Source: Catajapyx aquilonaris
Lineage: Eukaryota
Assembly (NCBI GenBank): GCA_000934665.2
Contig: JYFJ02002857.1
Coordinates: 1-49,815 of the forward strand
Direction: 5' to 3'
DNA length: 49,815 bases
Positions 1,445 through 40,798 of this stretch are shown here, one piece after another. How positions within the stretch are numbered: position 1 is the first letter of the stretch; each line of letters begins with the position of its first letter. A model generated the notes under the pieces. That model saw only the letters and a list, made by a program, of their open reading frames with translations, did not search any database and was not told where the DNA came from. A program made the translations under genes and the position numbers.

Positions 1445-3556
1445 TCAGTGAACAGGTCTAAACTTGAGGCATTTGGACAAGGATTTGTCATACTTGTGAC
1501 TCAGCATTTCTACTGCAAATGCTCCCAATGCAACGGCCAGTCCAACTAACCACATGTTGAAGATGGCAGAGAGTTTTGTCCTGGTCAACACTTCCTCTGC
1601 TTTTTGGGGGTTGTCCTTCTCCCTGGCCCGGATTCGATCTAAGGAACGGAGGAACATTAGGTACATGTTGTCACGCAAGATCACTGACATTAAATCATTT
1701 TCATTTAAAAATCTCTCGAATTTTCTTGCCAAGTAATATGCCATGGTTTGTCCACGGGGGTAACTCGCTCCAGTGTACGTCGGAAACACGTGGTCATATG
1801 AGTAACGGAATGTTGGCTGCCCAGAAGTGTCGCGAAAGAGGTAAATCTCCAGATCCAAGAGTAGGTTGATACCACTGCAGGCGAGTTGCTGGCTTTGCAT
1901 TTTCTCCAGGCAGTTCTGGGCACTTTGGCCCATATGTATCTTCGCATCCAAGGTATCATAGAGAGGGTCGTTGACATAGGAGAGGTATTTCTTCCAGATA
2001 AGAAAATTGATCAGGTCAGTTTCGATGGTCCAATCCGATTCCGCCAGTTCCCGGAAGTTCGTTGGGACAAACTCCCTCGGGGGAAAGGTAAGGAAGGAGA
2101 CCATCTTGGCCTTGTAGCCAGTGATAACCACGGTGGAGAAGAAGAGGAAGGAGGAGGCCAGGAAGAGAAAGCGGCGGGATGTGGGGAAGGCAACGGGCTG
2201 TTCTATCAGATGTCTGGCTAGGATATGGAGGGATCCAATTAAGGTCAGTTGCTGCCCTTCGACCTCTGACCTCCCTCCAGAAGGGTCGGAGAGGGAGAGT
2301 CTGCTCATCGCAATCGGGAGAATGGCGAGGGTGACCCCCAGGGACACCCAGAAGGTGAGGACGTAGGGTCGGTAGATGACCCTCCAGCTGATGACTCCTC
2401 CGGGTCTTCTGGTTATGAATGTCGCGTGTCCGTACAGATAGGGTGGGGTGAGGAGGGTGTGTCGATAGGATTCACTTGTGAAAGGCAAGGCACCTATCGC
2501 ATCTATACGTCCTGACAGCAAATCAGGTGTCAGTCCCACCCATGTTCCATTGTTCAGTCTTTGGTCAAAGTCTGCACTGGTGGGCTCCTTCAGGTAAATC
2601 TCAGTAATGAAATAGTTGTGGGTTTCTTCGGCGACGATGTACCCCCTTTCGGAGAGCGTGAGATAAACTTCACCCTGTTCTTTTTTTCTCCTTCGAACGT
2701 CCTCCATGTCGGCTGGAAACAAGTACATCCCAACAACAAATGGCTTCTTGTTCATCCTCTTGGCGTCGTAGTTTCTGAAGAAGGTGTCAGCTCTTGCTCT
2801 GTCCGCATGGTTGACACCCCCAAGATCGATGACCTCTGGTTGACCCCCTTCGCCGCAGAAGAAGCAGAGAGTCTCCATCTTCAACTGTCCATCTTCTTCC
2901 ATCCGGGTGGACACCTTCAGCCTGAGGGCACTGGCAGGGGGGGAGGTCAACACTCGATGGAGCTCTCTCTCCTTCACAGGATGAAGTGACCTCTGAGGGA
3001 AGTGGAGGAGGAAACGGTCGTCGAGTGGACTGACCTTGACCTTGAAGGCGGTGGACATGACCAGTTGTGGGAGGGAGGACGGGGAGGAGGGGAGAAGGAG
3101 GTGGAGGGTGCAAGCAGAGGATGACCAGGCAGAGGTCACGAGGAGGTCAGGAGGGACGGCGGTGAAGTCAAAGAGATCCGCTTGACCCTTGAGCCAGGGC
3201 TAGTCTGTGAAGGAGTGTGGAAAGGAGGTCATCCGGAGGGAGAAGGACGGGAGGTACTTGTCCGAGTGACCTTTAAGAAGAGGCCTCCACAATCCCTCCC
3301 AGACGCCCGATGACCCGATGAGGTCAGTGGACAGAACCAAGCCGCATCCCCGCATGTCCTCCCTCGTGTCCAGGATGCCCCTCACCAGTCTGGACACTAC
3401 CCACCACTCTCTTTCCTCCCCACCCTTCCTCTTTTCCTCTTCCATCAGACCAGACAAGTTCTTTCCAACACCCGATGATGATGATGATGATGAGGTATGG
3501 CCACCAAACATGGCCATGGCCACGGAGCAAACGACCAACACATGAAACAACGCCAT
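1445..3556 (-). pseudogene. Divergent ionotropic receptor IR-A, intronless, ~703 codons with one in-frame TAG (3200-3202); pseudogene or readthrough gene
   Basis: ORFs 3200..3556 and 1445..3139 are in the same frame, separated only by TAG. It has a signal peptide (MALFHVLVVCSVAMAMFG), a CFFC motif, S1 lobe NGTWVGL..L.SGRIDA, TPPYLY, M1 RPYVLTFW, M2 YKAKMVSFLTFP...PTNFRELA and a C-terminal TM ending AFAVE. Confidence 0.88.
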
Positions 3557-3845
3557 GCTTCGACTGATTACTGACGCTGACCTGGCCCAACACTACTCCA
3601 CCTGTTGTACTCGCACTTGCCTCGAATAATATTAAACACCAAATTGCCCGTCTAACTATCACTTGCCAAGACATTTCTATGTCATGTCAGACTATACCAT
3701 GCAGTTAGTGTCAATCAAATGTCTTTTCCATGACTTGATTGTAATATCAATAAGAGCATAAACAGTAGTAGGTTCTCCTCTGTCGGTGCTGTGACAAACT
3801 ATACGCCAATACCGGTATATTGTTTTAAAGTTTGGAACGGTTGGC

Positions 3846-3920
3846 TAGGGGTTTTTCCCAATTAAGTGGGCCTAATGTTTGCTAGACCATCTCGGATTTT
3901 GGCTAGAGAAATCGCAGCTG
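3846..3920. repeat. Dispersed repeat fragment, copy 1
   Basis: TAGGGGTTTTTCCCAATTAAGTGGGCCTAATGTTTGCTAGACCATCTCGG matches 48877-48948 with a few substitutions and indels. Confidence 0.6.
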
Positions 3921-4362
3921 TACACACCTATGTCATAACACTGCATATCAAGTTTCAGACATATTGCGTCATACCGTGGGGAGGGAAGAAATCGCGAAGT
4001 TTTGCTGAAAATGAGCCCTTTTTTGGATGATTTCTTTTGATTTGCACAGTCATTATGTAACTTACAGTATATACAGATCTAACACTCCCATACTATTATT
4101 ATGCCGGATCTTGCTTCAATTGCAGCATAGTATGTCGTCTCTTTATTAGATTGTTGCAATGTCTCAGCTTTCTTCCGACAAAGCAGGGAACTGTAGTAAA
4201 ACAATAAAAGCTTATCTTCTGAGATATTCAGACTTACAAAATTCCCCCGAAGCTATGGAAATTATCAAAATCTAAAACACTAGGATATAAAGGTAAGTTC
4301 GTAGAAAAATTGTGTCACTATTTTCGGATAGCTTTTGTGCTTGAAGGATACCCACAGTCGAA

Positions 4363-6263
4363 ATGGACCCATTTTTTCTCAGGACCTGTTGGACATTTCT
4401 GTTCTTATCAGCTTCTGCAGGCAAGGTTCCATTATTAACAACAACACTTCACTCTACTCCTATTGTCAGAAGGAAGTTTGGGACAAACACGTTTCTATTG
4501 CAGTTCTTTCAGCAAATGCGGATGTTTCCACCACAACAATATCTTCAGGAACCACTGTTAAACCAAGTAAGATTACAACAATAAGGATCGATCATAACAC
4601 ACGTCATACTCCCATTCTGTACCACATGGCATACATAATCAAACTGGATATATCCGTGTTTTACTATGGTAAGAATTCTTCGCATCTACTGCGAACACCT
4701 CCCCATTAGGCTATCTATTGCTGACAAAAAGATTGAGACAAATTTAAATGATGCTGACTTTCAACATTGTCTCAATCTTGTCCGTTACTATTGTGAACGA
4801 CCTCTTCAAATCAGGACATCAATGACTCATTAAACTAATTACTAATATGACTACAATACATTCACAGTAATGCCTACAGAAGTACGGTTTCTTCCACCAT
4901 ACCAGAAGAGTTACGACCCAATAACGTACGTTTATGACGACAAATCGCTCATTAAGATATCCATAGTATGCGAGGCACTTGGTGCATACCCTGAAGCAAA
5001 TCTGAAGTGGTACATTGGTATGTACAGCGAATGTTTACAACATACTTACCACTATTTTACTCGTTTATTTGACGGTTTATTACAGACGATGTACCACTAA
5101 CTAGAGATTTAAGTAAACCGAATGTGACCGGTACAGGCAAGAGCTTGTCTACATTCCAGTCATTTAATGGGATTTTTGAGCCGAAGGATGATAGAACGAA
5201 GCTGAAATGTGAAGCATCACAGCCTGGAGATAATCCGGACGAGAGGAAGAAGGCGATTAGAGATCTACAGGTGTCATGTAAGGGTCATACTGCCATGTTA
5301 TCAAAGATAGCCTGTACCGTTCAGTTTACACTGGTAGAATCAAGTTTGTTCCTGATTTAAAATCGGCCAAAAAAACCAAAAAAGTCTATTTGTTTACGGA
5401 TGGCGCTGCTGTGAGAGCAGATCCTGTCACTAGATGTCGCCCATTCCAGCAGTGAGTGTGCTGCTGACATCTGGTGGCAGGGCAATGTAGCATACAATTG
5501 AATGGTTTTGTAGTGACACTAACCCGTTTTCGTTGTGGATCCAGTTTCTCCCCAGAAAGCGACTCCGGAAGAGCCCCAGATATTTGACAACATGACCTTG
5601 GGCACAGTCGTGAGTTTCAAGGTCAAAGTGTATGCTAACCCTGGCGACTGTGTCATAAGTTGGAGGCTTCCCAGCAACGGAGAAATATTAACTGCAACTC
5701 AAAAATGGTCTACAGACTTCAGATTTTATGCTGGTCAACTGATATCGTCTGGAAAGGTACTGGACATGTACGATATTTCGACATGTGATATTTCAATATT
5801 TATAATATTTCGATATTACAATGTTTTGATTTTTCGATATTTGCGATATTTCGATACTTACGATATTTATTATATTTCGATACGTGCGATATTTCTTATT
5901 ATTACACGACTGCAAGAATTATCGTGGCATTAGTTTGTTAAGTGTACTACCAGGGATTTTCGATACTGAAATTTTAATATCGTGACGAATTACAGGGCGA
6001 TTACAATATTTTCCAGAATGTTTATTATGCACCGCTGAGGATATCACCTCTGAAGAAATCGGACCTGAACACCGTGTTTTATTTGGACGTGACAAATATG
6101 ATTGGAGATCGGGCCTACCCTGTCATCCTTTCTGCGGGTGTCACCAACATCGCTTTTGGTTTCATTACTCTTATGGTAAGTCCTGTAATGTTTGCAAAAT
6201 GACTTATGTAAATATTTCAACTTATTTCAGGCCACTACTGCCAGCATAATTATGATAAACTAG
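4363..6263 (+). CDS. Two-Ig-domain cell-surface protein, Fasciclin-3-like, probably GPI-anchored (7 coding exons)
   Basis: Exons 4363-4420, 4504-4566, 4868-5018, 5086-5277, 5545-5756, ~5995-6175 and 6231-6263 splice in frame. Features: signal peptide MDPFFLRTCWTFLFLSASAV, Ig C2 motifs CEALGAYPEANLKWYI and DDRTKLKCEA, a second domain VYANP...W...LDVTNMIG, and a hydrophobic C-terminus SAGVTNIAFGFITLMATTASIIMIN*. Confidence 0.75.
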
Positions 6264-6660: not shown

Positions 6661-7393
6661 ATGCAACTGATCATTCTGTTGGTGTTCTACTCTGCCTTTG
6701 TTGCTGCCGACGATATGGTAGGTCCATTTGACTAACGCTCTTCAGTATGATCATGCGCAATTGTTGCCAGCCAAGCCACTGCTACAGAAGATGGGGCACA
6801 AGTCCACAAGAAAGGGAGGCATTCTTGAGAGTGGAATCGCAGTGTGAACAGACTTTGATAGGAGGAAATCCAGATGTGAGTGTGTCTTTCTTCAACAATG
6901 AATTGGTTTAATTTCATTGAATTTCATTGCAGTGTGTTTTGCCATGCGTTTGGAATCACTTTGGTGTGGTGGGTGCACATGACAGCACTATTTTTGGATT
7001 GGAAATTAACATTATTTTTCCACATTAGTTGGACAACAATGGGAATATTATACCTGAGAGATTCGCAGAGATTTCATCACCAGGAGATGAATATGAAGAG
7101 TTTAGAGCATACGCTACTGACAATCTGATCAAATGTGCTCATGTCGGTGAGTACATTATTTTGTACATATCAACAGATGTACGGTAGGCCTACTGTAAAT
7201 GATGTAATGTTTGTAGTTCAGTCAGATAACAAGTGTGCGAAGTTACTAGGGGAAGTGGAGTGTGCATCTTACATATACACTCAGGTACTGTAATTTAAAT
7301 TAGTCATTTGCTTATAACTACTTGTTTCTGCTAACTATGGGTTGCGCACACTTTTTTTTACAGGAATGCGCACCGTATTACCAGAAAAAATAG
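6661..7393 (+). CDS. 8-Cys OBP-like protein 1 (~137 aa, 6 exons)
   Basis: Exons 6661-6717, 6771-6875, 6933-6968, 7029-7146, 7217-7284 and 7364-7393 give MQLIILLVFYSAFVAADDM|PSHCYRRWGTSPQEREAFLRVESQCEQTLIGGNPD|CVLPCVWNHFGV|LDNNGNIIPERFAEISSPGDEYEEFRAYATDNLIKCAHV|VQSDNKCAKLLGEVECASYIYTQ|ECAPYYQKK*. All introns are GT-AG; AATAAA lies near 7498. Confidence 0.88.
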
Positions 7394-7875: not shown

Positions 7876-8782
7876 TTACCATCCACATTCCTGTAATGCA
7901 ACAAATACGAGGAGCATTAATAGTATGATCATAAGCTGGCCTATACAGAAAATAAGTTTCATTCAGTTGAAGCCTTCTACTCGTACAGGACTTACAAGCA
8001 TCATTTTTTTCGATGAGCATACTAGAGGTTTCTCGATTTCACATACCCCCCGACCACCACCTTCACCTGCAGTAAGGCAATGATGAATAATTTTCAATTT
8101 TAAAACATACTGCTGTGGGCACTGTTCAAATGTTGAGTACAAACAAACCTGTTTCAATGCAATGGTTAATAGATTCGACCATGAGCTCCTTAGTTTCTTT
8201 GTATTCGTCGCCTGGCATAATGAAGTCCATTATCTCCTGTGGTTTCACGTTTCCATCGCCATCAAGCTACAGCAAGTCAGTATAAGGTAGTATTACTCAC
8301 AAATACCAAGTTCAAATAATGTAATGATGTAGTTCACTGCACCCACACTGTACTACACCCTATACATACCAGGTCCAGCTGCTTTAATACGCACCTCATA
8401 AAATCACACTGAAAAGACAATGTAAATATGGCACTCAGATATTAACGGGGTTATTCCAAATTATGTAGGTCATTAAAATGGGTAAATATGGCACCATATA
8501 TTAGTCCTTGTTCAGTTTGGAAAAATTGACATGCAGGCAATGAAGAGTAGGCATTAGTCAAACTAACCTTATCCCCTTGATCGTGATGGCAGATCATCAT
8601 AGCTGCTGCCACTTCTTCTTCAAGACCTACGAAGAGTTCATCAGGGCGTCGGCAGTGAGCAGGCTGAATAATGAGAAGAAATGTGACAAAATATTTCTCA
8701 ACCATCACTTGAATGGACTTACCACGTCTTGGGCTGCTGCAAAGGCCAAGAGAAGAAGGAGGGTGGCTGCGAAGAACCTCAT
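7876..8782 (-). CDS. 8-Cys OBP-like protein 2
   Basis: MRFFAATLLLLLAFAAAQDV|PAHCRRPDELFVGLEEEVAAAMMICHHDQGDK|CDFMRCVLKQLDL|LDGDGNVKPQEIMDFIMPGDEYKETKELMVESINHCIET|GEGGGRGVCEIEKPLVCSSKKMML|ECGW*; same intron phases as OBP-like 1. Confidence 0.88.
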
Positions 8783-10797: not shown

Positions 10798-11691
10798 TTA
10801 CCATCCGCATTCCTGTAATGCAACAAATTCGAGGAGTATCAATAGTATGGTCATAAGCTGGCAAGTCGCCTATACAGAAAATAAGTTTCATTCAGTTGAA
10901 ACATTCTACTCGTACAATAAGACTTACAAGCATGATTTTGTTCGCTGAGCATTCCAGAGGTTTCCCGAGTTCACATACCCTCGGACCATCACCTTCACCT
11001 GCAGTAAAGCGATGATGAATAATTTTCCATTTTTAAACATACTGCTGCGGGCACTGTTCAAATGTTGAGTACAAACAAACCTGTTTCCATGCAGTGGGTC
11101 ATAGATTCGACGAGGAACTCCTTGGTCTCTTTGTATTCGTCGCCTGGCATAATGAAGTCCATTGTCTCCTGTGGTTTCAATTTTCCATCGCCATCAAGCT
11201 GCGTATACAGCAAGTCAGTATAAGGTAGTATTACTCACAAATACCAAGTTCAAAAAATGTTATGATATAGTTCACTGCACCCACACTGTACCACACCCTA
11301 TACATACCAGGCCCAGCTGCTTTACTATGCATCTTTCAAGATCACACTGAAAAGACAAGGTAAATATGACACCATAATTATGAGTCCAATATGTATTTGT
11401 TCAGTTTGCAAAAATTGACATGCAGGCAATGAAGAGTCAGCATATTATTTTAACAAGACATAGTCACACTAACCCTATTATCCCCTTGATCTTTGCAGAT
11501 ATTCATAGCTGCTGCCAATTCTTCTGTATTGCCTTCGAAGGGTTGATCAGGGCGTCGGCAGTGAGCAGGCTGAATAATGAGAAGACGAAATGTGACAAAA
11601 GATTTCTCAACAATCACTTGAATGGACTTACCACGTCTTGGGCTGCTGCAAAGGCCAAGAGAAGGGCAAGGGTGGCTGCCAAGAACCTCAT
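10798..11691 (-). CDS. 8-Cys OBP-like protein 3
   Basis: MRFLAATLALLLAFAAAQDV|PAHCRRPDQPFEGNTEELAAAMNICKDQGDNR|CDLERCIVKQLGL|LDGDGKLKPQETMDFIMPGDEYKETKEFLVESMTHCMET|GEGDGPRVCELGKPLECSANKIML|ECGW*. Confidence 0.88.
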
Positions 11692-13942: not shown

Positions 13943-14826
13943 TTACCGCCATCCGCATTCCTGTGTAGAGGAGCATTAATAGTATGGTCATAAGCTGGCA
14001 AGTAGCCTACAGAAAATAAGTTTCATTGAGTTGAAGCATTCTACAGTAAGGCTTACACTGATGATTTTTTTCAATGCGCATTCTAGAGGTTTCAGGAACT
14101 CACATGCCCCCGGACCATCACCTTCACCTGAAGTAAACCAATGATGAGTAATTTTCCATTTTATAACATATTGCTATGGGCACTGTTCAAGAGTATAGTA
14201 CAAACTAACCTGTTTCTATGCAGCGGGTCATAGATTCGACGATGAACTCTCTGGTCTCTTTGTATTCTTCTCCTGGCAGGAGGAAGTCCAATGTCTCCTG
14301 TGGTTTTATGTTTCCATCGTCATCAAGCTACGTATACAGCAAGGCAGTAAGGTATTACACACAAAATACTTCAACTAATGATAGCCTATAGTTCACTTTG
14401 GTTCACTTCCCCCATGCTGTACAGTGTACACCATAATACATACTAGATCCAGGACCTCCATTATGCATCTTTCAACATCACACTGAAAAGACAAAGTAAA
14501 TATGACATCATAATTATTAGTCTAATATATTTTTGTTGAGTTTGCAAAATTGCTGTGAAGAGTCAGCATTTATTTAGTCTACATATTATTTTAACAAGAC
14601 AGAGTCAAACTAACCCTATACCCTTGATCCTGGCAGATATTCTTAGCTGCTGCCAGTTCTTCTTCATTTCCAACGAAGGATTCGTGAGGGTGTCGGCAGT
14701 GAGCAGGCTGAAAAATGAGAAGAAATATGACAAAAGTTTTCGCAACAATCACTTGAATCGATTCACCTTTTCTTCGGCTGCTGCAAAGGCCAAGAGAAGA
14801 AGGAGGGTGGCTGCGAAGAACCTCAT
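13943..14826 (-). CDS. 8-Cys OBP-like protein 5
   Basis: MRFFAATLLLLLAFAAAEEK|PAHCRHPHESFVGNEEELAAAKNICQDQGYR|CDVERCIMEVLDL|LDDDGNIKPQETLDFLLPGEEYKETREFIVESMTRCIET|GEGDGPGACEFLKPLECALKKIIS|ECGWR*. Confidence 0.88.
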
Positions 14827-26576: not shown

Positions 26577-28330
26577 ATGTTACTTTTCTCTCTAAAATAC
26601 CTATTGTGCCTCCTCCCTTTTTCACTCTTTGTGACAAGTGTCCTAAGTTCAGATGAAGAATCTCTCCAAGATGCTCAAAACGTTTCAGTGGTCATCATTG
26701 GAGCAGGCATGTCAGGCATTTCTGCTGCTCTCAGGCTGTATCAACATCACGGAATCGACAGTTTTCTGATTTTGGAAGCATCTAACAGGTAGGCCTATGT
26801 CAAAAACGGGAACAAATTTACCAACTTCATTTTGAAAAAAATGCCCAAAATGTTTATTTTGCAAATATTTTAAAGGACTGGAGGTCGACTGCACACTGTG
26901 ACGTATGGTGATTCTTTGGTTGAAATGGGCGGCAATTGGATCCATGGAGGAAGTAACGCAAATCCTCTCTTCAACCTGGCCAACCAATATGGCCTTATAA
27001 ATTCGCTAGACTCACTATTAGGACATCCTGAAGATACAATTGTATACACATCCGATGGAGGTACTGTGAATGAGGAGGCCAGAAGTAGGGCAACTGAGGC
27101 CATTCATAAAATACACGACCTTGAAACAGGAGATGTTCCTACGAATATAACATCTCAGGAATATCTGGACCAAAAATGGGCGTCCTTTCTCCGAATGTAT
27201 CCAGAGGAGGACTGGGATGATATGGATCGAATCTGGATCAATCATCTTTGCGGATACAGAGTGTTCGAAGGAGACTCATTAGAACTAGTCAGTCCATCGA
27301 GTTCTTACGTTTTCATACCAGGATTGGATGTGGTCATACCCACAGGGTACTCCAGTCTTCTGGAAAACATGATGAACGAGCTGCCCTCTGATCGAATCAT
27401 GCTGGACACTCCAATCACTTCTATCGAATGGAACCCTGATGGGGTCAAAGTGTCTACTGGCAGCAAGATCATAAGAGCCAAGGCTGCAATAATCACCGTG
27501 TCTGTTGGAGTGCTAAAGTCGGATGCCAGTATGTTCAAGCCTAGACTTCCAGGGAAAAAGAGGAAGGCCATAAGCAATCTGGCATTTGGGAAAGTTGTCA
27601 AAATCTTCTTGGAGTTTGAACATCCTTTCTGGACACCAGGACACGGCAGAGTTCCTTTGGGTTGGACCAGAGAGGAGTACACGGAGGCTATGAATGATCC
27701 CAGCAAGAAGTGGTTCCAAGTTATGCCTGGATTTACTGAAGTGTACAACAATTCCAGGGTCCTTATGGGCTGGGTGACCGGACCACAGGTACAGTACAGG
27801 TCCTATTATTATATTAAAACAGTTTCTGCCATGAAGGCGAGTGGAGAGGGCAAAATGAGGGTGTTAGGCCCAGCTAGCAGGACCACGTGGAGCTAGGCCT
27901 AGGTAGGCCTAGCTTCACGTGGTCCTGCAGAGTAACCGGGCCACACACTGTGTAATTAATTACTTCTTTCCTTTTACAGGCTATAGTTGCAGAAGAACTG
28001 AGCGACGAAGAGGTATTGCAAAAATGCATTCTAATATTACGGCAGTTCACAGGCGATCCTACTCTGCCAGAACCAGTGTCGATCCGAAAGTCGTCATGGT
28101 GTACCGACCCACATTTTAGAGGAACATATTCGTACCCGAGTGGACTGGATGGACATGACCAGATCTTTCGAAGCTGGTTGGGGGAACCTCTTCCGAATTC
28201 GAAAAATCCGGTGGTTCTCTTCGCTGGAGAAGCAACTCATCCGAAGTTTTTCTCGACTGCTCATGGAGCTTACTTATCTGGAGTTCGAGAAGCTGATAGG
28301 ATTGGAGCGATACTATCGGCTAAAAATTGA
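26577..28330 (+). CDS. Flavin-containing amine oxidase (polyamine/spermine oxidase-like) with N-terminal signal peptide
   Basis: Exons 26577-26788, 26876-27788 and 27980-28330. Motifs VVIIGAGMSGISAA, ILEASNR|TGGRL, EMGGNWIHG, VTVSVGVLK-like, KIFLEF, W..DP.FRGTYSY and FAGEATH....STAHGAYLSGVREA. Confidence 0.92.
27877..27928. repeat. Near-perfect palindrome in oxidase intron 2
   Basis: 25-bp arms GCAGGACCACGTGGAGCTAGGCCTA / TAGGCCTAGCTTCACGTGGTCCTGC, with one mismatch and a 2-nt spacer. Confidence 0.85.
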
Positions 28331-28610: not shown

Positions 28611-30090
28611 ATGACTCGTCGTACAGTGATTCAGGTGGAAGAAGCCAGACCCTCCGATGACGCGTTTTGGACAGTGTTCAGACCACTGGCCATCTTGTCA
28701 ATCATCGGAGGAATCGCTCCTTGTCCGTGGCCCAGGAAAGAGCTGAGTTGGAAGTGGTGCCAACGGTGGCCAACAATGTTGCACATATCATTTTTGATCA
28801 TATGCGGTGTCATATTCATCATGTTCACGCCAAATTTATTAGTTGACTTGGTCAACAGTCGTAATGTTGACACTGTTAAAGTCATGACCATTATTTTGAC
28901 ATCAGCAATGGCAAGCGGAGCGTGGGTCACATTCATTCTGATTCAATCAAGAGTGTCCAAAATTTGGAAACTGCTTCACCGTTTCTCCCTGCTGGATGTG
29001 AGTGGACACATAATAAAATTGCGAAATTTATCTGCGATGCTGGTCGTGGTTTGCGTTTGTCTGCCAGCACTTCAATTAATTTATGTGATTGTCCTTTTAG
29101 GACAAATAGGTCAACTCTTTGAACAGCAAAATTGGCTCTTTGTATTGTTTTGTTGGCATTGTTTATTTTTACTGCATCTGATTCCGGTTCAAGTCGTATT
29201 TCTGGCAGTCGTTTTGAGATCGCTCCTGAAAAATTTTAATAGAGAAGTTCTGAATATCTGCATGATCCAAACCGATCAGAAAGGCATCCAGCTGAGCAAA
29301 TTGTCCTCTTATGCTGACCAGTTCCATGAAATATGCATCTTAGTAGAGCATGTGGACAGAACGTTCGGAATATTTTTAGTGGCAACATACATGATATTTC
29401 TGACATGGAGCGTTGGATATCTCTTTCACTTGTTTTATTTCCCATTAACCATCACACATATTATATGCAAGATCATTTCAATCACATCCGCATCAGTTTC
29501 ATTAATTGTTTTCACCATGATGTTAGGATCCATCCCTCGAGAGGTAAGCTTATCTTGATTCATAACTGACGAAAAATATAATCGTGTGATGATCGTGTGA
29601 TCGTGTGATCGTGTGATCGTGTGATCGTGTGATCGTGTGATCGTGTGATCGTGTGATCGTGTGATCGTGTGATAATCGTATAGTGATGACTTTATATTCT
29701 CCTATTCTGAATGTTGTGTTTTCAGAGCACAAGGACACTGAGACACCTGGTACAAGTCAATCGCTTAGTGACCAATCCAACTATCACTGCAGATGTGGGT
29801 TACCTTATGTCTCATAGCTATTTTCGCGTATTTTCGACATTATGAACATGCCTGGTCTTCTTTACAGGTCCAGTCACTTATTCAGAATATGACAGGTCCA
29901 CCTATAGAGATAACTGCAGGCAGTTACTTCAGTATCAAGGGAGGACTTTTGACCTCGGTAAATGTTTGGACAGTGTTTTGCAATAATTCCAATTTTCCAA
30001 TATTTCAAAATGACGTATCTTCTGCAGATAGCTGGAGCTGTGACGACCTATCTAGTAATTTTGGCCCAGTTCAGAGGTGCCGAAAAATAG
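28611..30090 (+). CDS. Gustatory receptor GR-4 (more divergent paralog)
   Basis: Exons 28611-29543, 29726-29794, 29868-29957 and 30028-30090. Shares FRPLAI...GGIAPCPWP with GR-1 to GR-3; ends TTYLVILAQFRGAEK*. Confidence 0.9.
29581..29672. repeat. (ATCGTGTG)n tandem repeat, ~11 copies, in GR-4 intron 1
   Basis: The 8-bp unit is directly visible. Confidence 0.95.
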
Positions 30091-30502: not shown

Positions 30503-31349
30503 TTACGAGCATGCCTGAACAAAGAATTGCCATATGAAAGGCAATTAAATAGATTATAAAACTTAATACATAAAAATTTAAAAAAATAGTTGAGGTCTTG
30601 TCTTACCCTTTCCAAATCATGAAACGCACACATCATGTCACCAGGAGCCCCTGTGCACTTTATCCCTCTATTACCTATAAGAGAATAACATATTGACATG
30701 AACTATTTTAAACCATATTCAACTTACCGTTTCTGCATTCGGTGATAATGCCCGCCATATATTCCTTTGCTTCATCATATCCTTGATCGGGATAAATCAG
30801 GTCTACAAATTCTGTCTTTAAATGGCCATCTTCGACCTGATGAAAGATGACCGTAGTGTTATAGGAAAACAAAAGCCTCTTGTATTATACATACCAGATT
30901 CGCCGCATTGAGTGTACATGCTGCCGTTTCACACTGTAAATATTACATATCTTATTTATTATTTTGAACAGTATTTTGGTGTCAAATGTCGAAAAATGTT
31001 TTGGACACATAAATATTTAGAACTGTTCTTACCTCGCCTCCAGCATTTGTGCAGTGGGTCAAACGGGCATTTGTCAGGGTGACACGGGCTCTGTTCAGTT
31101 CTTCTCCTGATGGAAAGTTGCAGTAGGGTCGCCTCTACACAACAATGAAATGGTAAACTGTTAGTATGAATTGTCACAATCTATACATATTTCAAAACAA
31201 TTCACAAGTTTAAATTGCTCCTTATCAGGAAGTCAAAATCATGTGGAATTGCACAGAAGTTTAACAATGGAAGGTTTTCTCACCCTATCGGAGGCTGCGA
31301 AACCTGCAAGAAGCAGCAGTGAAGCCAGGAGAATCATTGTTGCTGACAT
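30503..31349 (-). CDS. 8-Cys OBP-like protein 9
   Basis: MSATMILLASLLLLAGFAASDR|RRPYCNFPSGEELNRARVTLTNARLTHCTNAGGE|CETAACTLNAANL|VEDGHLKTEFVDLIYPDQGYDEAKEYMAGIITECRN|GNRGIKCTGAPGDMMCAFHDLER|ACS*. Confidence 0.87.
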
Positions 31350-32266: not shown

Positions 32267-33132
32267 TTATGAGCATGCCTGAAAAAGAGCGAAAATATTT
32301 TAGCATATTATTAATATACTGAAAGTTAAAATAATTAGTGGATCCCATGCCTTCTCTTACCCTTTGCAAAGCATGAAACGCACAAATCATGTCACCAGGA
32401 GCCCCTGTGCATATCGACACTCTCTGGCCTAAAAGAGAATAACATATCGAAATGCATGAACTATTATACTCAACTCAACACTTACTGTTTCGACATTCGG
32501 TGATCCTGTCTGCCAAATATGCTTTTGCTTCGTCATATCCTTCATCGGGATAGATAATGTCCACGAACTCTGCCTTTAAGTGGCCATCGTCGACCTGAAA
32601 AATGAAAACCGTGGTATTATAGGAAAACAAAAGCGTCTTGTACAGTACTACATACCATATCCAACGCGTTGAATGTGCATGTTGCAGTTTCACACTGTAA
32701 ACAATACAGAAGTTATTATCTCGTATAGTACTGCACTTCTTCTTACAGCGATTGATGTCAAAAAATGTTTCGGACAAATGGTACACATCATGTCCATTTT
32801 GTTTCATATTTTTACCTCGCCTCCAGCATTTGTGCAGTAGGTCAATCTAGCATTGCTGAGAGTGTTCGTGGCTCTGTCCAATTCTTCTCCTTGTGGAAAC
32901 TTACAGTAGGCTGGATCCTACATAACAATGAAGTACAACACATGAAATTATAATCGCGAAGTGTGGGTATGGTTTCAAAACAAATTGCTTCAAGTGCTCA
33001 TTAGTAAGAAGTCAAAATTATGTATAATTGAACACTGATTAGAGTAACAATGGAAGGTTTTCTTACCTCATCGGATGCTGCGAAACCTGCAAGAAGCAAC
33101 AGTGAAGCCAGGAGAATCATTGTTGCTGACAT
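32267..33132 (-). CDS. 8-Cys OBP-like protein 10
   Basis: MSATMILLASLLLLAGFAASDE|DPAYCKFPQGEELDRATNTLSNARLTYCTNAGGE|CETATCTFNALDM|VDDGHLKAEFVDIIYPDEGYDEAKAYLADRITECRN|SQRVSICTGAPGDMICAFHALQR|ACS*. Confidence 0.87.
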
Positions 33133-33881: not shown

Positions 33882-34917
33882 TTACTCTTCATCAGAGACA
33901 TTGTTGCACTCCTGAAAAAGTAATTGAAAATTTAGACTCAATTTGTTTATCTATAAGAAAGTGCATTTTACATTCACATAGCATACTTTGCAAAATTTAT
34001 TTATAATATTTTCTGGTAGAATTGAATACAAATAAAAATTTATTGAATTTGATCATTTTTTTTCAGATGCTGATCTCCACATACGGTACCTGATTTCTAA
34101 AATCCATTGCACAATCAGAGGCAGCGAGAGGTTGATAAGGACACCAATCATCGTAGTCTTTCAAATAGTTTCTCAACAATTCGGCTGAGAATAACCAACA
34201 ATGTTACTTTGCACCATTTATGTCCAAGTATTTATAACTTACGATCGCTTTGACATTCGATGATTTTTTCTGCCAAATAGTTCTTAGTTGCATCAAATTC
34301 TTCACCATCAGGAAACATGAAGTTGACAAACTTACGCGGATTCAGGTTCTCAACATCATCAAGCTGAAACCGGTTCCATTGATGAGACAATGCTTGGTAC
34401 GACGTCACATGTACTTACCAGTCCCAGCTCATTAATGGTGCAATGGGTCGAAGCACACTGTAAAATTTATAATATAAAGTTTAACTAGTTATCTGGTGTA
34501 ATTATAACATTACTGTACCTGATGGGCAGCCAAATATTTACAAACTGTTGATTGAACTTGCTGCATTTGGCTAGTTACTACATTCATGTGCTCTGGAGTC
34601 GTATATCTGCAGAAGTCCTATAGGAATAACAGTGTAAGTATGTAAGGGGTAAGTCTGGGGTAAGTAAGTGGTAAGTAAGGGGTAAGTAAGGGGTAAGTAA
34701 GGGGTAAGTAAGTGGTAAGTCAGGGGTAAGTCAGGGGTAAGTCAGGGGTAAGTAAGTGGTAAGTAAGTGGTAAGTCAGGGGTAAGTCAGGGGTAAGTCAG
34801 GGAATAACAGTGAATATTTTTAAAATATACTTGCAGCCTACTTACTTCATCATCAGCTGAAGTCAAACTTGAAATAAGAAATATTGGAGCCAACAAGAGG
34901 ACCATTGTTGTGGCCAT
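33882..34917 (-). CDS. 8-Cys OBP-like protein 11
   Basis: MATTMVLLLAPIFLISSLTSADDE|DFCRYTTPEHMNVVTSQMQQVQSTVCKYLAAHQ|CASTHCTINELGL|LDDVENLNPRKFVNFMFPDGEEFDATKNYLAEKIIECQSD|PELLRNYLKDYDDWCPYQPLAASDCAMDFRNQ|ECNNVSDEE*. Confidence 0.86.
34635..34800. repeat. (GGGGTAAGTCA/GTGGTAAGTAA)n minisatellite in OBP-like 11 intron 1
   Basis: 11-bp degenerate unit, flanked by the direct repeat GGAATAACAGTG (34623-34634 and 34801-34812). Confidence 0.9.
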
Positions 34918-35194: not shown

Positions 35195-37012
35195 TTACTC
35201 AATGTCCGTTACATGAATCTCTGTCGTATCAGTTGCAGGCATACAATCACGTTCGTTGCTATCAGCACAATCCTTAATGCTGTGTCTTTTTATCACTTCT
35301 AATATTAAGAAACATATAGACAGGCAACAACCAGAGAATAGGAAGAAAAAGGCTGACTTAAGAATAGCCAGAGTCATAACTTTTGGCCCCGTTTCTTCCA
35401 TAATAATTTTCCCAGAGTTGTACCACTTTCTTCTCTGAAGGTCCTGCTTCTGCTTTGCTAACACATGCTCGTCATGATCATGCAAACCAGAATCCACATA
35501 TGTTTGTAGACCTCTCTTTATAGACTCGTAGGTCACTGAGTGTGTCTCAGTGCTGATACCCACAATCAGAGTGGGTAGGTCTGACTTAGCAACGTAGAGA
35601 AGTTCCTGTCGATACTCGTTGTCAGGGTCGTCCAGGGTGTACCACGGTGTCTGTTGGGCCAAACAGGCGTACTTTCCGTCTAGTGTCTTCAGCACACATG
35701 TCTTCAGGAAGTCCCAGTATTGCAGTTCGAATATCTCGACCTCTGATGCAATCTTTCTGATGACTGGACTTTCGGTTAGGTTCACGAACTTGTCGTAATA
35801 CCAGTCCTTACCGAAGCTGCCCCATTTGTACTGCATGTCCACTAGGTCTTTTAGTGACTCCAGGTTCTTCGAAGTGGAGTCCAGGAACACTCCGACCATG
35901 TTTGAGGTGAAGAAGGTGGACACCAACATGCAGAAGTAGACGTACAGAAAGAAGAGGCAGTTTGTTGATGATGTGAAGTTGCGAGTGTCCACTGATTCGT
36001 CAAACAGTACTGGTATTACATAGTTTGTCAGAATCATGTACCATGACTTGTGATGTCCGATTCTACCAGGTTTTGTTCTGGATAGGAAGTAAATGGCTGT
36101 TGTCACCATGCATATTGAGACAATGAGGCTGAGAAAAGCATTCCATGTGAACGGCACCAGAAGAAGACCCTTGGACATCTTGGGAGGAAACTTCTTGGTG
36201 ATGATGAGCATACCGTCGATTCTGTATGGGTTTGTGTAGCTACAGTTGCTGTCCAGTACCATCGTTTCTACCTGACAAATCCAGTACATGTGTTTAGGGA
36301 CAGTGTTAGTAATATCTACCCAGGTGTAGTTGAGATGCTCGGCTAGCCACTTATTCATAAGATCTTTACGATTACACACTTGGATAGTTCTTCTGTGCCA
36401 GTTCTTTGTGGTGTCTGGAAACAACTCGTCAACAAATGAGGTGACAGTGGTGTGTGTGACTGTGTAGGTACCGTTGTCACAAAAGTAGCATGGTGATAGC
36501 ATCCTAAGTGCCAAACCATTTTCACTTGTGATGTTGGCAATACCCAATCGGTGTTTCAACGTGTGAGATTCCCATCCAATACACTCTTCGATTGATCCAT
36601 TTTTAATGTGGAATATGTGGTAATCACGTGTGCCTCTCCAAGGCCGTAGTGTTACTAAATACTGTTGAACTAAACTGTGGTAAGAAGTGATCGTGGAGTG
36701 ATACAGCACCACGAAGCACTGTCCCGATTGTTGAATCACCAATGTGTTTCTCACCTTCTTTGTGTTGTTTGAAGCGATCACCACTGGTGTTTTGACCATT
36801 TTTGGCAGTCCTTCCAGTTCATAATCCAGAAACTTATTGTCGTGGAGAATAGCAAGTGAGCAGTCCTTCACTTGGTTATTCTCTGCCATTATCCTTGACA
36901 CTGCTTCTGACAACAGTTCAGTTTCTGTCTGATAAGCATTGATCTTGATTGCACTAATTTTGTTGAAAATTATGCTGATTATTAGACAAGTCACTATGTA
37001 CGCCATTTGCAT
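35195..37012 (-). CDS. Divergent ionotropic receptor IR-C (intronless, ~605 aa), paralog of IR-B
   Basis: Signal peptide, PCYFCDNG, LFPDTTKNWHRRTIQV, YTNPY, LLVPFTWNAF, FTSNMVGVF...LESLKDL, DSGL and a final TM ending FLILE; colinear with IR-B. Confidence 0.88.
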   Translation of the reverse strand: MQMAYIVTCLIISIIFNKISAIKINAYQTETELLSEAVSRIMAENNQVKDCSLAILHDNKFLDYELEGLPKMVKTPVVIASNNTKKVRNTLVIQQSGQCFVVLYHSTITSYHSLVQQYLVTLRPWRGTRDYHIFHIKNGSIEECIGWESHTLKHRLGIANITSENGLALRMLSPCYFCDNGTYTVTHTTVTSFVDELFPDTTKNWHRRTIQVCNRKDLMNKWLAEHLNYTWVDITNTVPKHMYWICQVETMVLDSNCSYTNPYRIDGMLIITKKFPPKMSKGLLLVPFTWNAFLSLIVSICMVTTAIYFLSRTKPGRIGHHKSWYMILTNYVIPVLFDESVDTRNFTSSTNCLFFLYVYFCMLVSTFFTSNMVGVFLDSTSKNLESLKDLVDMQYKWGSFGKDWYYDKFVNLTESPVIRKIASEVEIFELQYWDFLKTCVLKTLDGKYACLAQQTPWYTLDDPDNEYRQELLYVAKSDLPTLIVGISTETHSVTYESIKRGLQTYVDSGLHDHDEHVLAKQKQDLQRRKWYNSGKIIMEETGPKVMTLAILKSAFFFLFSGCCLSICFLILEVIKRHSIKDCADSNERDCMPATDTTEIHVTDIE

Positions 37013-37463: not shown

Positions 37464-38251
37464 CTAGTCCATTGCAGAGTCCATGTACTCAGAACACTCC
37501 TGAAATATGATTCGAGTTGAATATTTGATTGCTCTCATTAGTAAGTCAGATTGTTAAATACCTGAGTGTAAGCCCTCCATTCGCAGTCGATCACTTTTGT
37601 CGCTTTCTTGCAGACGTCATCGCCATGAGAAGCAGCTGGGTGTAGGTAATATATAGCAACATTAGTCTAATCCATGGTTTGTGACAGATATTTCAAATAT
37701 AGAGAAAAATCATTCTATGTGAAGATAATGACGTACCTCCCAGGCACCGTTGAGTGTTGGCAGCCACTAGTTCCCTGAAGTTCTCATATTTATCATTAGG
37801 CATTACTATTTTTGCGTATTCTTCTGGTATTACATTATCATCATAGCCCATCTGTAAGAGATTAGAGAAACACATCATCCCATAATGTGTCTACCCTATA
37901 TGAATAATGGTGTGAAATTGTCCTACCGCTCCGTAACGGTCCAACACACATGCATCGAGGCACTGGAAAATAATCCAAACAAATTAATACACTAATATGT
38001 AGACTGAGCAAAATGGTTACTTACATTTGGTTCAATCCCAGCATGCTGGCATATGTGCTCATTATTTACCCACATGTCGAATGCACTATTGCCTACTTCT
38101 CTGGGAAATGTGCAGTAGCTTTCCGTCTGTGGTATTACAAGATTGAACATACCATTTATATGTACTATACTTGCACTGTACCTACATCATCAGCTGCTGC
38201 ACCAACAGCGAAGAACAGACAGAAGACCAGAATCATACCAGTAGGATTCAT
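37464..38251 (-). CDS. 8-Cys OBP-like protein 12
   Basis: MNPTGMILVFCLFFAVGAAADD|TESYCTFPREVGNSAFDMWVNNEHICQHAGIEPN|CLDACVLDRYGA|MGYDDNVIPEEYAKIVMPNDKYENFRELVAANTQRCLG|AASHGDDVCKKATKVIDCEWRAYTQ|ECSEYMDSAMD*. Confidence 0.86.
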
Positions 38252-38701
38252 TGCAGGACACTACTATAAATACAAGTCGGTTCAATAACTAGCTGGAACT
38301 ACACATTTGCGCACTAATATATGCTAAAATATATCACTAAATTGGGCTCTCATTTCCTGGCTTGGGTCATTAAAACTTTGCTATACATAATTAATATCAT
38401 TTGCATTAGATTGATGTTGATGAAAACGGAAATTGATCAGATTCTATGCAAAACAGTGTTAATTGTCAAAACTATCGCAGCTTTAAATTAGACACTATCC
38501 AGGTGGAGCTACCGGATATCCTCTAAAAACTGAGTACATATCTGTTGTTATTTCACTGAATAATAATTATATATAATTAATGGCTAGCGTTACATTTCAC
38601 ATTTTATGTAAGTCCTGTAATTGGTCATTCATGCAGTTAGGATGGTGCAATGTAAACAATGAGTAAGGTTCATGCAGTTGTTTATTCAGATCTTTCAGTG
38701 C

Positions 38702-39404
38702 TCACATGAAGCTACCGCATATCTGTAAAAATGAAGTTACACATGTACGACTCATACTAAAAATTACAATGTCACATAACTTATTACCTCTACAAAAGTG
38801 TCCATTGCACACACGATGACTTCTATTGGTCGAACTGTGTCTCCACATTCATCTTCAGAGCCATTTGCCTCTGCAATTGTTCGCATTTTAACATGAGAAC
38901 ACCATTTAACTTAAGCCAAACTCACCTTCTTGAGCACAGGTGGCAAGTGTCTCTGTTGCAAACTCTTTGAAGTCATCATAACCTTCGCCTGGGATTAGGA
39001 AGTCAATATAGGCTTCTGGTTTCAGTTGGCCTTCATCATCAACCTGCCTCGGAACATTATTACTCACACTGTATGTCCCCAAAAAAATGGTCACCAGCTT
39101 ACCAATTGGAGTTCCTGGAATACGCATGCCTGAGCAGCACACTGAAAAGACACAATTATTAGAACATGTGACACAGTATATGATTTAGTTTCAAACCGCA
39201 TCTGGCAGATCCTGACACTTGACACCGGCTTCATAGATGTGCATTCTAGATGCTTCAGATAGGCCTTCAGGGTAGTGGCAGAAATCTGGCTGAAATGTTT
39301 TTTCCATTAAATGGCAACAATCATTAAACATTTGAATCACTTCTTACAATGTCTTCTGCAGCCACAACAGCTGAGAAAACAAGCAACGACACGAGGAGGA
39401 TCAT
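38702..39404 (-). CDS. 8-Cys OBP-like protein 13
   Basis: MILLVSLLVFSAVVAAEDI|PDFCHYPEGLSEASRMHIYEAGVKCQDLPDA|CAAQACVFQELQL|VDDEGQLKPEAYIDFLIPGEGYDDFKEFATETLATCAQE|EANGSEDECGDTVRPIEVIVCAMDTFVE|ICGSFM*. Confidence 0.86.
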
Positions 39405-39840
39405 TGTCGACAATGTGATGAGCGTCTTCTTCATCCAAATGATGCACTATTGACCTATTTTGGTTGCACCATTTCCGCATATAAGTGATTGCATTTTAGG
39501 TGCAGGAAATTATATAATTTGTTTGCTCATTTGCTTACGGAAATGCGTCTCTCAGTGAGGTCATCCGTATATTTCCCTAATAATAGAGAGATATTAGCAG
39601 CCCATGTTGTGTACACTAGTGGTTGTGCAGTAGTGATGTAGATATTGCACTCATAAATAGAGTACAGAGTGACACTATTTGCAGGATGACTAATTCAGGA
39701 ACTCAAAATATTTTTCACTTTAATTAAATCACCACTATGCAAGTTTACAAAAAATCATGTAACTAGTGACATTCTACACATTGTTGAGTGTTGCTATAAG
39801 CAGCTCCAATTTTCATTGCAGTCACTGTTTCTTCTGCAAC

Positions 39841-40798
39841 TTATATTCTGACGCATGCCTGAAAGTAAGGTAAAAGGTAATGTTACATTGGAGTGCAACA
39901 TACTGTACAACAAGCCGCACCTGAAATCTGGCTTCTATTGCACAATCCAATGTAGACACTGGTCTTGGACATGCCGATGTGGGTGAGATGTCTGCATAGG
40001 CTGTAGAGTAGTTAAAAATTAATTGTGATTTTAGGAAAGACAATGCATTGACACAAAGTGAATTAGCAGTCACTTACGGTCAAGTTTGCATTTGGCAATT
40101 TTCTCGGCAAAAAAGGCTCTTGCTTCATCATAGCCGTCCTTAGGATACATTATATCCACAGCCTTATCTATTAATAAGTCTCCATCCTCACCAACCTGAA
40201 GTGCAATGCAATGCAAACAATTACAAGTGTTTGTATTACATTAATTTCAACGGAAGTTAACATTCATACATACCAGGTGAAGTGTTTCCATCACACATTT
40301 TGTGACCTTACACTGTAATGATAACATTAATAAACTAAAGTAAAATGCAGTTGTCATGCATAAATCTTGTACGTAAAGCATAGGTGAACTAGTGTGAAAT
40401 GTTTTCTTTTGTCATAAAATGTCACAGTAATTTGACCTTATATTTGGTAGAAACTCGACACATTTCTTTAGCTGCAACCATTGCTCCAGCTTGATCTTCT
40501 TGCTCAGACTGAGAAGGTACGGCACAACGGCTAGACTAAAATATAAAAAATAGTGACCAAAAAAGTACAGGATATGCAAAATATCAGATTGTTAATAGCA
40601 GATCAATATTATGCTGTAAAAGAGATATAAAGTAATCAGAAATATCTTACATGCAGCCGCCTGTACTGAAGCTAATGAATAATTTCATAATGAACTGATG
40701 AGTAATGAGTGTCAAGCTATTTTACTTACAGCATAACCTGCTACCAAATTTGCAGTAATAAGCATGGAAGCCAAAATTCTGATGGCTGTTGCCTTCAT
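39841..40798 (-). CDS. 8-Cys OBP-like protein 14 (possible extra 15-nt microexon)
   Basis: MKATAIRILASMLITANLVAGYA|(YRRLH)|SSRCAVPSQSEQEDQAGAMVAAKEMCRVSTKYK|CKVTKCVMETLHL|VGEDGDLLIDKAVDIMYPKDGYDEARAFFAEKIAKCKLD|PYADISPTSACPRPVSTLDCAIEARFQ|ACVRI*. Confidence 0.85.

Follow-up and report, generated by a model that had tools for sequence, protein, structure and literature searches.

For the classic odorant-binding proteins (OBPs) of insects, PMC7414794 quotes the motif C1-X22-32-C2-X3-C3-X30-47-C4-X8-10-C5-X8-C6. OBP-like proteins of Minus-C-like or six-Cys type are on record for chelicerates and myriapods (Vizueta et al. 2017, 2018; PMC5381604, PMC5952958), where weak resemblance to the insect proteins in BLAST or profile searches revealed them. 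Chelicerates have 1-4 each and the centipede Strigamia maritima has 21, a variation that provides a precedent for lineage-specific expansion. With regard to genomic context, Drosophila OBP genes are described as being kept beside non-OBP genes, often encoding plasma-membrane proteins, for which chromatin domains are offered as the explanation (Librado and Rozas 2013, PMC3845639).

The window analyzed here, a 49,815-nucleotide stretch of DNA from Catajapyx aquilonaris, contains a 39-kb span (1445..40798) that interleaves three ionotropic receptor (IR) genes, four gustatory receptor (GR) genes, a polyamine oxidase, and 13 intact genes for small secreted Cys-rich proteins. With a gene roughly every 1.8 kb, the span has 22 genes, 20 of them of the IR, GR, or small 8-Cys kinds. 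The locus is real and unusual, which confirms the observation made in an earlier note on this DNA. The gene order given there (IR, Ig, OBPx6, IR, OBPx2, GRx3, amine oxidase, GR, OBPx3, IR, OBPx3) was reproduced with three qualifications, and its end coordinate, 40798, marks exactly where the last small gene has its start codon. First, the initial block of six small genes holds five intact copies, the sixth being a 5'-truncated fragment (12526-12888), which brings the total to 13 intact genes and one fragment rather than 14. Second, the exons ascribed to an Ig-domain gene do lie at that place in the order (4846..6249, plus strand), but their Ig matches are weak (C2-set_3 at 15.5 bits, below its cut-off of 27, with E=0.018; CD276 in the PDB, E=0.26), and no Ig family was detected in the other four ORFs tested. 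Third, a family of small secreted Cys-rich genes does occupy the places where OBPs had been named, but membership in the OBP family is a label based on pattern. The single N within the window, at 42447, falls outside the span.

An all-against-all ORF comparison recovered one exon family at 13 loci, and exon chaining assembled 13 complete ORFs, each of six exons. In every one, the frame is open, the introns have GT/AG splice sites and phases 0,0,0,1,0, and the eight cysteines are kept. Exon 1 encodes a signal peptide, and the mature proteins have 109-127 aa, are acidic (pI 4.05-5.4), and share eight invariant cysteines with the spacing C-x19-22-C-x6-10-C-x3/4-C-x40-43-C-x6-17-C-x7-11-C-x8-C, the short third interval being C-x4-C in 10 copies and C-x3-C in 3. 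The sole plus-strand copy is G1 (6661..7393; six exons, of which 5 and 6 were read by eye); all others are on the minus strand. In the tree, clade A (support 100/99) comprises G2 (7876..8782), G3 (10798..11691), G4 (13943..14826), and G5 (15354..16147), and clade B (96/97) comprises G7 (19872..20649), G8 (30503..31349), and G9 (32267..33132), the models of G2 and G8 being backed by direct reading of the sequence as well. Clade C has the form G1,(G6,G11), with support of 96/96 and 95/94, and includes G6 (18733..19507) and G11 (37464..38251). G12 (38702..39434) is sister to clade C (84/86), G13 (39841..40798) sits on a long branch, and G10 (33882..34917) has no placement. The minus-strand fragment at 12526-12888 retains exons 5 and 6 with 3' flank but, of exons 1-4, only the end of exon 4, and is 89.6% identical over 375 nt to 15250-15619, the 3' part of G5. 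It adjoins an unrelated inserted repeat.

Several of these models find support in public reads. All five introns of G11 were confirmed by GT..AG joints, on the gene strand, within one contig of the RNA-like run X5; the joints coincide exactly with the predicted exon borders, and none of the five is present in the DNA run X1. Pieces of X5 also lie on exon 4 of G8, G9, and G13, and X5 contigs lie on exon 3 of the oxidase. For G9, the pieces end at the boundaries of exons 4 and 6, and the 68-nt gap in the record corresponds to exon 5. Over 20900-40850, where reads were checked, no RNA cover of receptors was seen.

The three IR genes appear as long minus-strand ORFs (1445-3199, 16546-18414, and 35195-37036), for each of which Lig_chan was the best Pfam match, at 21.8, 15.4, and 22.3 bits, respectively, all under the cut-off of 30.8 bits. 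The first, IR1 (1445..3555; Lig_chan E=1.8e-4), is a divergent gene of iGluR type that matches GluN1 in the PDB (E=5.4e-7) over S1-M1-pore-M2 and has hydrophobic segments at 278-303, 343-362, and 542-568. Its signal-peptide ORF (3203-3555) and main ORF (1445-3199) share one frame and are split by a single TAG at 3200-3202, and the gene is either affected by a pseudogenizing or polymorphic stop or encodes a shorter product starting from a Met near 3058. IR2 (16549..18387; 613 aa, the N-terminus being a hydrophobic leader; Lig_chan E=0.017) and IR3 (35198..37012; 605 aa; Lig_chan E=1.2e-4) are intronless divergent IRs with hydrophobic segments. They are 40% identical over 586 aa, and neither matches IR1 significantly. 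GluA2 accounts for all three PDB matches of their joint profile, the best at E=0.05. Among 5.8 billion clusters, a word-based search detected no relative.

On the plus strand, four four-exon GR genes of the 7tm_7 family were identified: GR1 (21116..22536, 43.9 bits), GR2 (22951..24428, 58.4 bits, splice sites read), GR3 (24812..26305, 64.6 bits), and GR4 (28611..30090), whose 23.5 bits are under the cut-off of 26.6 and which is 37-39% identical to the other three. The TYxxxxxQF motif is present in the last exon of three of the four, while GR1 has I for T. Between GR3 and GR4 lies the gene (26577..28330, plus strand; exons 26577-26788, 26876-27788, and 27980-28330) that had earlier been called an amine oxidase, an identification that Pfam Amino_oxidase scores of 123.9 and 74.5 bits bear out. 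Its 491-aa product is a flavin polyamine oxidase with Rossmann matches in exon 1 and best PDB matches, over about 300 residues, to PAOX (5lae, E=2.7e-32) and SMOX (7oxl, E=4.1e-30). Its N-terminus is a hydrophobic leader of about 24 residues, its last residues are -AKN, without a PTS1, and on these two grounds it may be secreted.

We favor the view, with a probability of roughly 60%, that this is a duplication-prone neighborhood of fast-evolving peripheral chemosensory genes, most of the interleaving being explained by a few events of gene and block duplication. The tandem arrays are 55-87% identical, the tandem repeats at the DNA level 65-87%, and local tandem duplication would have produced G2-G5, G8-G9, and GR1-GR3. 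The stop codon of G6 lies 345 nt upstream of the start of IR2 in the same orientation, that of G11 lies 451 nt upstream of the start of IR3, and the two pairs are alike in order, strand, and short spacing, suggesting that an ancestral pair, an IR preceded directly by a clade-C small gene, may have been copied as a unit. The duplicated unit is supported for these two genes only, as the next neighbors are not sisters in the tree (G5 versus G10, G7 versus G12). The opposite-strand GR-oxidase block splits the clade-B small genes and, in the proposed history, would sit within their array, with G7 on one side and G8/G9 on the other. A separate promoter for each gene is probable. The alternative raised in the earlier note, in which chemosensory duplicates build up in the region, fits the tandem arrays, the copied two-gene unit, and the truncated copy beside an inserted repeat; taken as a whole, the interpretation in that note is partly supported.

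From their pattern of features, we infer that the small proteins act as soluble, OBP-like carriers of ligands and are released into the fluid surrounding sensory dendrites. They might instead belong to another secreted Cys-rich class, such as EF-hand-like calcium binders or salivary, seminal, or immune proteins, with the locus mixing unrelated fast-evolving families, a possibility that we regard as unlikely but tenable. At the exon level, no homology to OBPs was detectable: PBP_GOBP matched none of 26 single exons and none of three exon-4 ORFs, an exon-4 profile found no OBP among 177,635 PDB sequences (best match calmodulin, E=0.091), the same profile found no relative among 1.84 billion representative proteins, where its sole match was an unrelated 3,083-aa repeat protein, and word-based searches found nothing. 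Three tools gave weak EF-hand-like signals for exon 4, namely the calmodulin match, EF-hand_STIM1 at E=0.059 and 0.17, and a language-model atlas look-up (0.90, 123/256 features shared), and the high dN/dS of the youngest gene pairs (0.8-1.0), which allows for relaxed constraint, also accords with a non-carrier role. Against an EF hand, every score is far under cut-off. When the copies are read in HMMER's alignment register, the 11 that align gap-free all place a hydrophobic residue (L, V, A, or M) and none a D or N at loop position 1, and 5 of them lack E at position 12, while in G8 and G9 a deletion shortens the loop by one residue. No canonical loop exists in any of the 13 copies, and such residues make the usual calcium coordination impossible. 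Size, acidity (pI), signal peptide, and Cys spacing agree with OBPs, as presumably does the position of a D-x-x-G turn after the C-x3/4-C pair, and the genomic neighbors are chemoreceptors. The spacing overlaps the classic motif as quoted in PMC7414794.

A further explanation for the locus takes up the first suggestion in the earlier note, a co-regulated sensillum module. Joint expression in the same sensory organs, through common enhancers or a chromatin domain, would keep carriers and receptors linked to a secreted enzyme that clears amines, and each IR would use the carrier encoded just upstream. Support for it is indirect: small gene and IR keep their order, strand, and short spacing although G6 and G11 are down to 35% identity and the IRs to 40%, the oxidase may be secreted, both the small genes and the oxidase have contigs in X5, and the conserved arrangements of Drosophila OBP clusters with membrane-protein genes have been ascribed to chromatin domains (PMC3845639). 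Nevertheless, no upstream 7- or 8-mer common to the families exceeded the 95th percentile of random windows, and the single enriched motif, ARTAGTG, is missing upstream of IR2, IR3, GR3, GR4, and the oxidase and is inconsistent in position and strand. The oxidase is closest to the general (housekeeping) polyamine-catabolic PAOX/SMOX, the carrier identity is pattern based, and the third IR, the one outside the two pairs, has another gene between itself and the nearest small gene and lies on the opposite strand. As the pair occurs just twice, a single duplication is enough to account for the adjacency, with no need for selection. We consider the module doubtful, both in its shared regulation and in the use by each IR of its upstream carrier, and offer the functional pairing of a carrier with its neighboring IR as a hypothesis.

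That the interleaving reflects mis-joined contigs, collapsed repeats, or chance is highly improbable: independent contigs do break at high-copy repeats at about 31.6-32.0 kb and 33.5-33.7 kb, but a single 6,968-nt DNA contig of X1, which may be the assembly's own source sample, spans 34773-40850 with two differing letters and joins G10-IR3-G11-G12-G13 within the right half covered by the read check (20900-40850), and the paralogues, at 20-87% identity, are too diverged to be collapsed copies.

Compared with insect OBPs (Pfam PBP_GOBP, PF01395; classic and Plus-C), the small proteins are alike in having a signal peptide, an acidic mature chain of ~110-130 aa, x40-43 before the next cysteine, many tandem copies, and transcription, and three copies share C-x3-C; they differ in having eight conserved cysteines rather than six, C-x4-C in the other ten, and exons without a Pfam or PDB match to OBPs. 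The conserved Pro after C6 that PMC7414794 quotes for Plus-C OBPs is also absent. The chelicerate and myriapod OBP-like proteins, compared here by their published descriptions in PMC5381604 and PMC5952958, are likewise very distant from insect OBPs and occur in lineages relying on IRs and GRs, but the small proteins differ from them in their eight cysteines and the absence of detectable OBP similarity. The IRs resemble divergent (lineage-specific) IRs in being ~600 aa, intronless, and locally arrayed, and in channel-domain similarity to iGluRs, the three hydrophobic segments following the S1-M1-P-M2-S2-M3 layout, while IR2 and IR3 depart from them in scoring under the Pfam cut-off and IR1 in its in-frame stop. 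The oxidase has the FAD Rossmann motif and animal PAOX/SMOX as its best PDB matches but differs from these in its hydrophobic leader and in the -AKN end that replaces PTS1. Finally, as in the Drosophila OBP clusters described in PMC3845639, small OBP-like genes stand beside genes for membrane proteins; in this case, known from one locus, the neighbors are chemoreceptors of two families, at a density of about one gene per 1.8 kb.

The interleaved order of iGluR-type receptor genes (IRs), gustatory-receptor genes (GRs), an amine oxidase, an Ig gene, and OBPs that an earlier note had read between positions 1445 and 40798 is borne out by our analysis, but it needs three corrections, in that the fourteenth OBP is a fragment, the Ig assignment is weak, and the OBP label is unproven. 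The DNA of the window is eukaryotic, has ~40% G+C, and carries very short introns. ORFs were listed from stop to stop under the standard code and then scanned against Pfam, in which Lig_chan (PF00060) was the best match for three long minus-strand ORFs (21.8, 15.4, and 22.3 bits, with a cut-off of 30.8) and the sole match for IR2 (16549-18387) and IR3 (35198-37012). The gustatory-receptor family 7tm_7 (PF08395) was found in four plus-strand ORFs, at 43.9, 58.4, and 64.6 bits and, for GR4, at 23.5 bits (gathering score, 26.6), and the flavin amine oxidase family (PF01593) was found in two ORFs at 123.9 and 74.5 bits (cut-off, 19.8). The Ig profile amounts to a C2-set_3 match in one of five ORFs at an E value of 0.018, below the cut-off, and a PDB match to CD276 at an E value of 0.26. 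Scans for tRNA and Rfam families across the window gave no matches. Just beyond the cluster, a tandem pair of minus-strand ORFs (41510-42343 and 43733-44718, encoding 194 and 253 aa) shares 81-87% DNA identity and has no Pfam family, and one or more leucine-rich-repeat genes with duplicated segments inside (LRR_8, up to 69.9 bits) occupy 44935-49380 on the same strand.

With regard to the reliability of the assembly, one contig from the DNA sequencing run X1, which is possibly the sample behind the window's own assembly, differs from the window at two letters over 34773-40850 and joins the small genes G10 and G11-G13 to the intervening IR3. The comparison with sequencing runs covered the right half of the cluster (20900-40850). 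Other X1 contigs break at two high-copy short repeats (31680-31966 and 33531-33660), where the summed contig depth reaches ~5,000 and ~19,000, respectively, compared with ~30 in the flanking sequence; neither repeat has a tRNA or Rfam match.

The genes labeled as OBPs in the earlier note form one coherent family. When all ORFs of at least 30 aa in the window were compared with one another, a single exon family emerged at 13 loci, and two copies that were read base by base have the same six-exon plan, in which the first exon encodes a signal peptide, the next four are short, and the final one has 3-11 codons. A chaining script that required intron phases of 0,0,0,1,0 and GT/AG borders recovered a complete ORF at all 13 loci (G1-G13). 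The products are 131-151 aa long, exon 1 encodes a predicted hydrophobic leader of 19-24 codons in every copy, and the mature proteins would be 109-127 aa with a pI of 4.05-5.4. Eight cysteines are present in a fixed order in 13 of 13 products, with a spacing of x19-22, x6-10, x3 or x4, x40-43, x6-17, x7-11, and x8. The 14 OBPs originally counted therefore comprise 13 intact genes, whereas the fourteenth (12526-12888, minus strand) is a truncated copy without exons 1-4 and with 89.6% identity to the 3' part of G5. This fragment adjoins an unrelated repeat (12893-13650), of which a 59-nt stretch recurs inverted at the window end (49645-49815) with 96.6% identity; the 150-aa ORF of the repeat has no Pfam match.

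Transcript-like sequence agrees with these gene models. None of the runs recorded as RNA covers the region. X5 is a small run from the same organism for which the kind is not recorded, and it was counted as RNA-like because its contigs are spliced. One 490-nt X5 contig covers G11 with five GT..AG joints on the gene strand, exactly at the modelled exon borders, and none of these joints is present in the DNA run X1. In G8, G9, and G13, further X5 pieces end at the borders of exon 4, the stretch missing from the X5 record of G9 equals exon 5, and exon 3 of the oxidase likewise carries X5 pieces. The GRs, IR3, G10, and exons 1-2 of the oxidase are without X5 contigs, a blank that carries no information on expression, and contig depth is unsuited to ranking genes or giving copy number.

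It is somewhat probable (roughly 0.55 to 0.6) that the small proteins are OBP-like carriers, representing a variant of the family beyond the reach of sequence search. The leader, size, acidity, overlap in cysteine spacing, and occurrence as many tandem copies beside chemoreceptors speak for the OBP label, although at the exon level there was no match to PBP_GOBP or to an OBP in the PDB, and no relative in the protein database. Specifically, in searches at the level of single exons, PBP_GOBP (PF01395) matched neither exon 2 nor exon 4 of any of the 13 genes (0 of 26 at E<=10) and none of three exon-4 ORFs at E<=0.1. A 13-sequence profile of exon 4 retrieved no OBP chain from 177,635 PDB sequences, with calmodulin as the top match (E=0.091), and no relative from 1.84 billion representative proteins, where the lone match was an unrelated repeat protein of 3,083 aa; word-based homologue searches with exon 4, both singly and as the 13-sequence profile, returned nothing. 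The EF-hand identity hinted at by the calmodulin match and by leads from the atlas look-up, all with weak scores below cut-offs, does not stand up to a look at the loop. An EF-hand loop spans 12 residues, of which the first is Asp or Asn and the last is Glu. In the register of the HMMER alignment, all 11 gap-free copies carry a hydrophobic residue (L, V, A, or M) at the first position, and the loops of G8 and G9 are shortened by a deletion, so that D or N opens the loop in none of the 13 copies; a residue other than E takes the last position in 5 of the 11 gap-free copies. Insect OBPs bind ligands and fold into six helices with three interlocked disulfides. For the OBP-like reading, the relevant standard is the classic six-cysteine motif, given in PMC7414794 as C1-X22-32-C2-X3-C3-X30-47-C4-X8-10-C5-X8-C6. 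When the second and last cysteines of the small proteins are left out, the remaining spacing of x27-33, x3 (3 of 13) or x4 (10 of 13), x40-43, x6-17, and x7-11 (x8 in 7 of 13) overlaps this motif in part. PMC5952958 and PMC5381604 describe OBP-like proteins very distant from insect OBPs in chelicerates and myriapods, including 21 copies in the centipede Strigamia maritima.

The receptor genes differ in how securely they can be assigned. IR1 (1445-3555, minus strand) matches GluN1 and other iGluRs in the PDB across S1-M1-pore-M2 (E=5.4e-7). For IR2 and IR3, both also on the minus strand, the iGluR match is only suggestive, with Lig_chan E values of 0.017 and 1.2e-4, respectively, below the cut-off, and three PDB matches for a profile of the two sequences, all to GluA2 (best E=0.05). 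These two genes are intronless and 40% identical. Ionotropic receptors have three membrane segments and a pore loop, split ligand-binding lobes, and no large amino-terminal domain. The three IRs are 584-613 aa long, and hydropathy places hydrophobic segments, three as expected, near residues 280-310, 320-375, and 525-575 in each. An AlphaFold2 model of IR3 from a two-sequence alignment had a mean pLDDT of 32.1, which is too low to use, and none of 2,469 candidates scored in a word-based homologue search with IR2. In IR1, an in-frame TAG (3200-3202, minus strand) divides a 130-aa signal-peptide part from the 584-aa main part, and a search for an intron able to remove it found none. IR1 also lies in a bin (2001-4000) with 52% G+C, the one G+C-rich bin in a window that otherwise has ~40%. 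The plus-strand genes GR1-GR4 have four exons each, and the motif of the last transmembrane helix in gustatory receptors, TYhhhhhQF, is present as TYxxxxxQF in the last exon of GR2, GR3, and GR4, with I in place of T in GR1. GR4 is 37-39% identical to the other GRs. X1 contig depth rises to 880 (20900-21565), 144 (24896-25561), and 238 (28226-28891) along the conserved 5' region of the GR genes, compared with ~30, and many further GRs of the same subfamily may be present elsewhere in the genome, contig depth not being equivalent to copy number.

To trace the origin of INTERLEAVING, the 13 small proteins were placed in a maximum-likelihood tree, which resolved three supported clades: clade A, with G2-G5 (support of 100/99); clade B, with G7,(G8,G9) (96/97); and clade C, with G1,(G6,G11) (96/96 and 95/94). 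On the minus strand, G6 is followed after 345 nt by IR2, and G11 is followed after 451 nt by IR3 on that same strand; neither IR2 nor IR3 has a close relative other than its counterpart. A single ancient duplication of a two-gene unit would be the simplest origin of G6/IR2 and G11/IR3. GR1-3 and the genes of clades A and B form tandem arrays of the ordinary kind, at DNA identities of 65-87%, and the plus-strand block of GRs and oxidase lies between the clade-B members G7 and G8/G9. Given the pair duplication, the tandem arrays, and this block, the ten apparent switches between families therefore reduce to about three independent juxtapositions. Values of dN/dS are 0.25 for IR2/IR3, ~0.5 for the GRs, 0.44-0.45 for clade B, and 0.66-0.99 for clade A, which is typical for young chemosensory duplicates and also allows for relaxed constraint.

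The earlier note had interpreted the interleaving as either a co-regulated sensillum module or a chromatin domain that gathers duplicates. A duplication-prone neighbourhood fits the data, whereas the co-regulated module stays hypothetical, its best clue being the duplicated arrangement of a small gene followed by an IR. Among upstream 7- and 8-mers common to several families, the top k-mers reached, but did not exceed, the 95th percentile found for random windows. The motif ARTAGTG, with sites, for example, at 19549, 20779, 35049, 38265, and 39451, has 14 of its 32 sites in the window within the 3.25 kb formed by the 250 nt upstream of each of the 13 small genes, compared with ~2 expected, for what is a merged motif picked after inspection and inconsistent in position and strand. 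It is absent upstream of IR2, IR3, GR3, GR4, and the oxidase. A precedent is given in PMC3845639, according to which OBP genes of Drosophila keep a conserved arrangement with genes for membrane proteins, an association ascribed to chromatin domains. In the full-text literature searched, including the accessible part of PMC11236287, we met no description of a mixed IR/GR/OBP cluster, which is not to claim that there is none.

The remaining member of the cluster is the oxidase (plus-strand exons 26577-26788, 26876-27788, and 27980-28330; 491 aa). Its nearest PDB entries are 5lae, PAOX (peroxisomal N1-acetyl-spermine/spermidine oxidase; E=2.7e-32), and 7oxl, SMOX (spermine oxidase; E=4.1e-30), while monoamine oxidase B reached only E ~9e-5. 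The proximity to PAOX and SMOX and the distance from MAO-B thus identify it as a relative of the polyamine oxidases rather than a classic amine-transmitter or odorant oxidase; an atlas look-up returned a family assignment only. A hydrophobic leader of ~24 residues precedes the FAD-binding motif at the N-terminus (26577-26650), and the C-terminus, -AKN, is not a PTS1. From these features of the sequence, it is possible that the oxidase is secreted.

A more ambitious joint reading, which we regard as improbable as a whole, is that the eight-cysteine proteins are new lineage-specific OBP-like carriers, that the small gene and IR constitute a conserved cassette, and that a secreted oxidase clears amine ligands. 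Under this reading, a carrier gene with an IR 350-450 nt downstream would be a conserved carrier-receptor cassette, each IR would work with the soluble protein of the adjoining gene, and the leader-bearing oxidase among the GRs would be the secreted enzyme that clears amine ligands. If true, the locus would represent a genomically hard-wired peri-receptor unit for transport, detection, and inactivation. How soluble carriers come to be matched with individual chemoreceptors is, to our knowledge, unsettled, and for IRs there is next to no information. A small gene and an IR copied and retained as a pair would offer a concrete candidate for such a pairing, for which thirteen neighbouring genes provide natural controls. 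Should the small proteins fold as OBPs, the superfamily would gain a form that sequence searches miss, with a bearing on the date of OBP origin; should they not be OBPs, the locus would still be a compact case of birth-and-death evolution with four families side by side.

In comparison with known systems, the leader and missing PTS1 of the oxidase are unusual among its animal PAOX and SMOX relatives. The small proteins resemble insect OBPs in being predicted to be secreted, small, acidic, and encoded in many tandem copies, but they have eight cysteines where insect OBPs have six, and the paired cysteines are separated by x4 rather than x3 in 10 of the 13.
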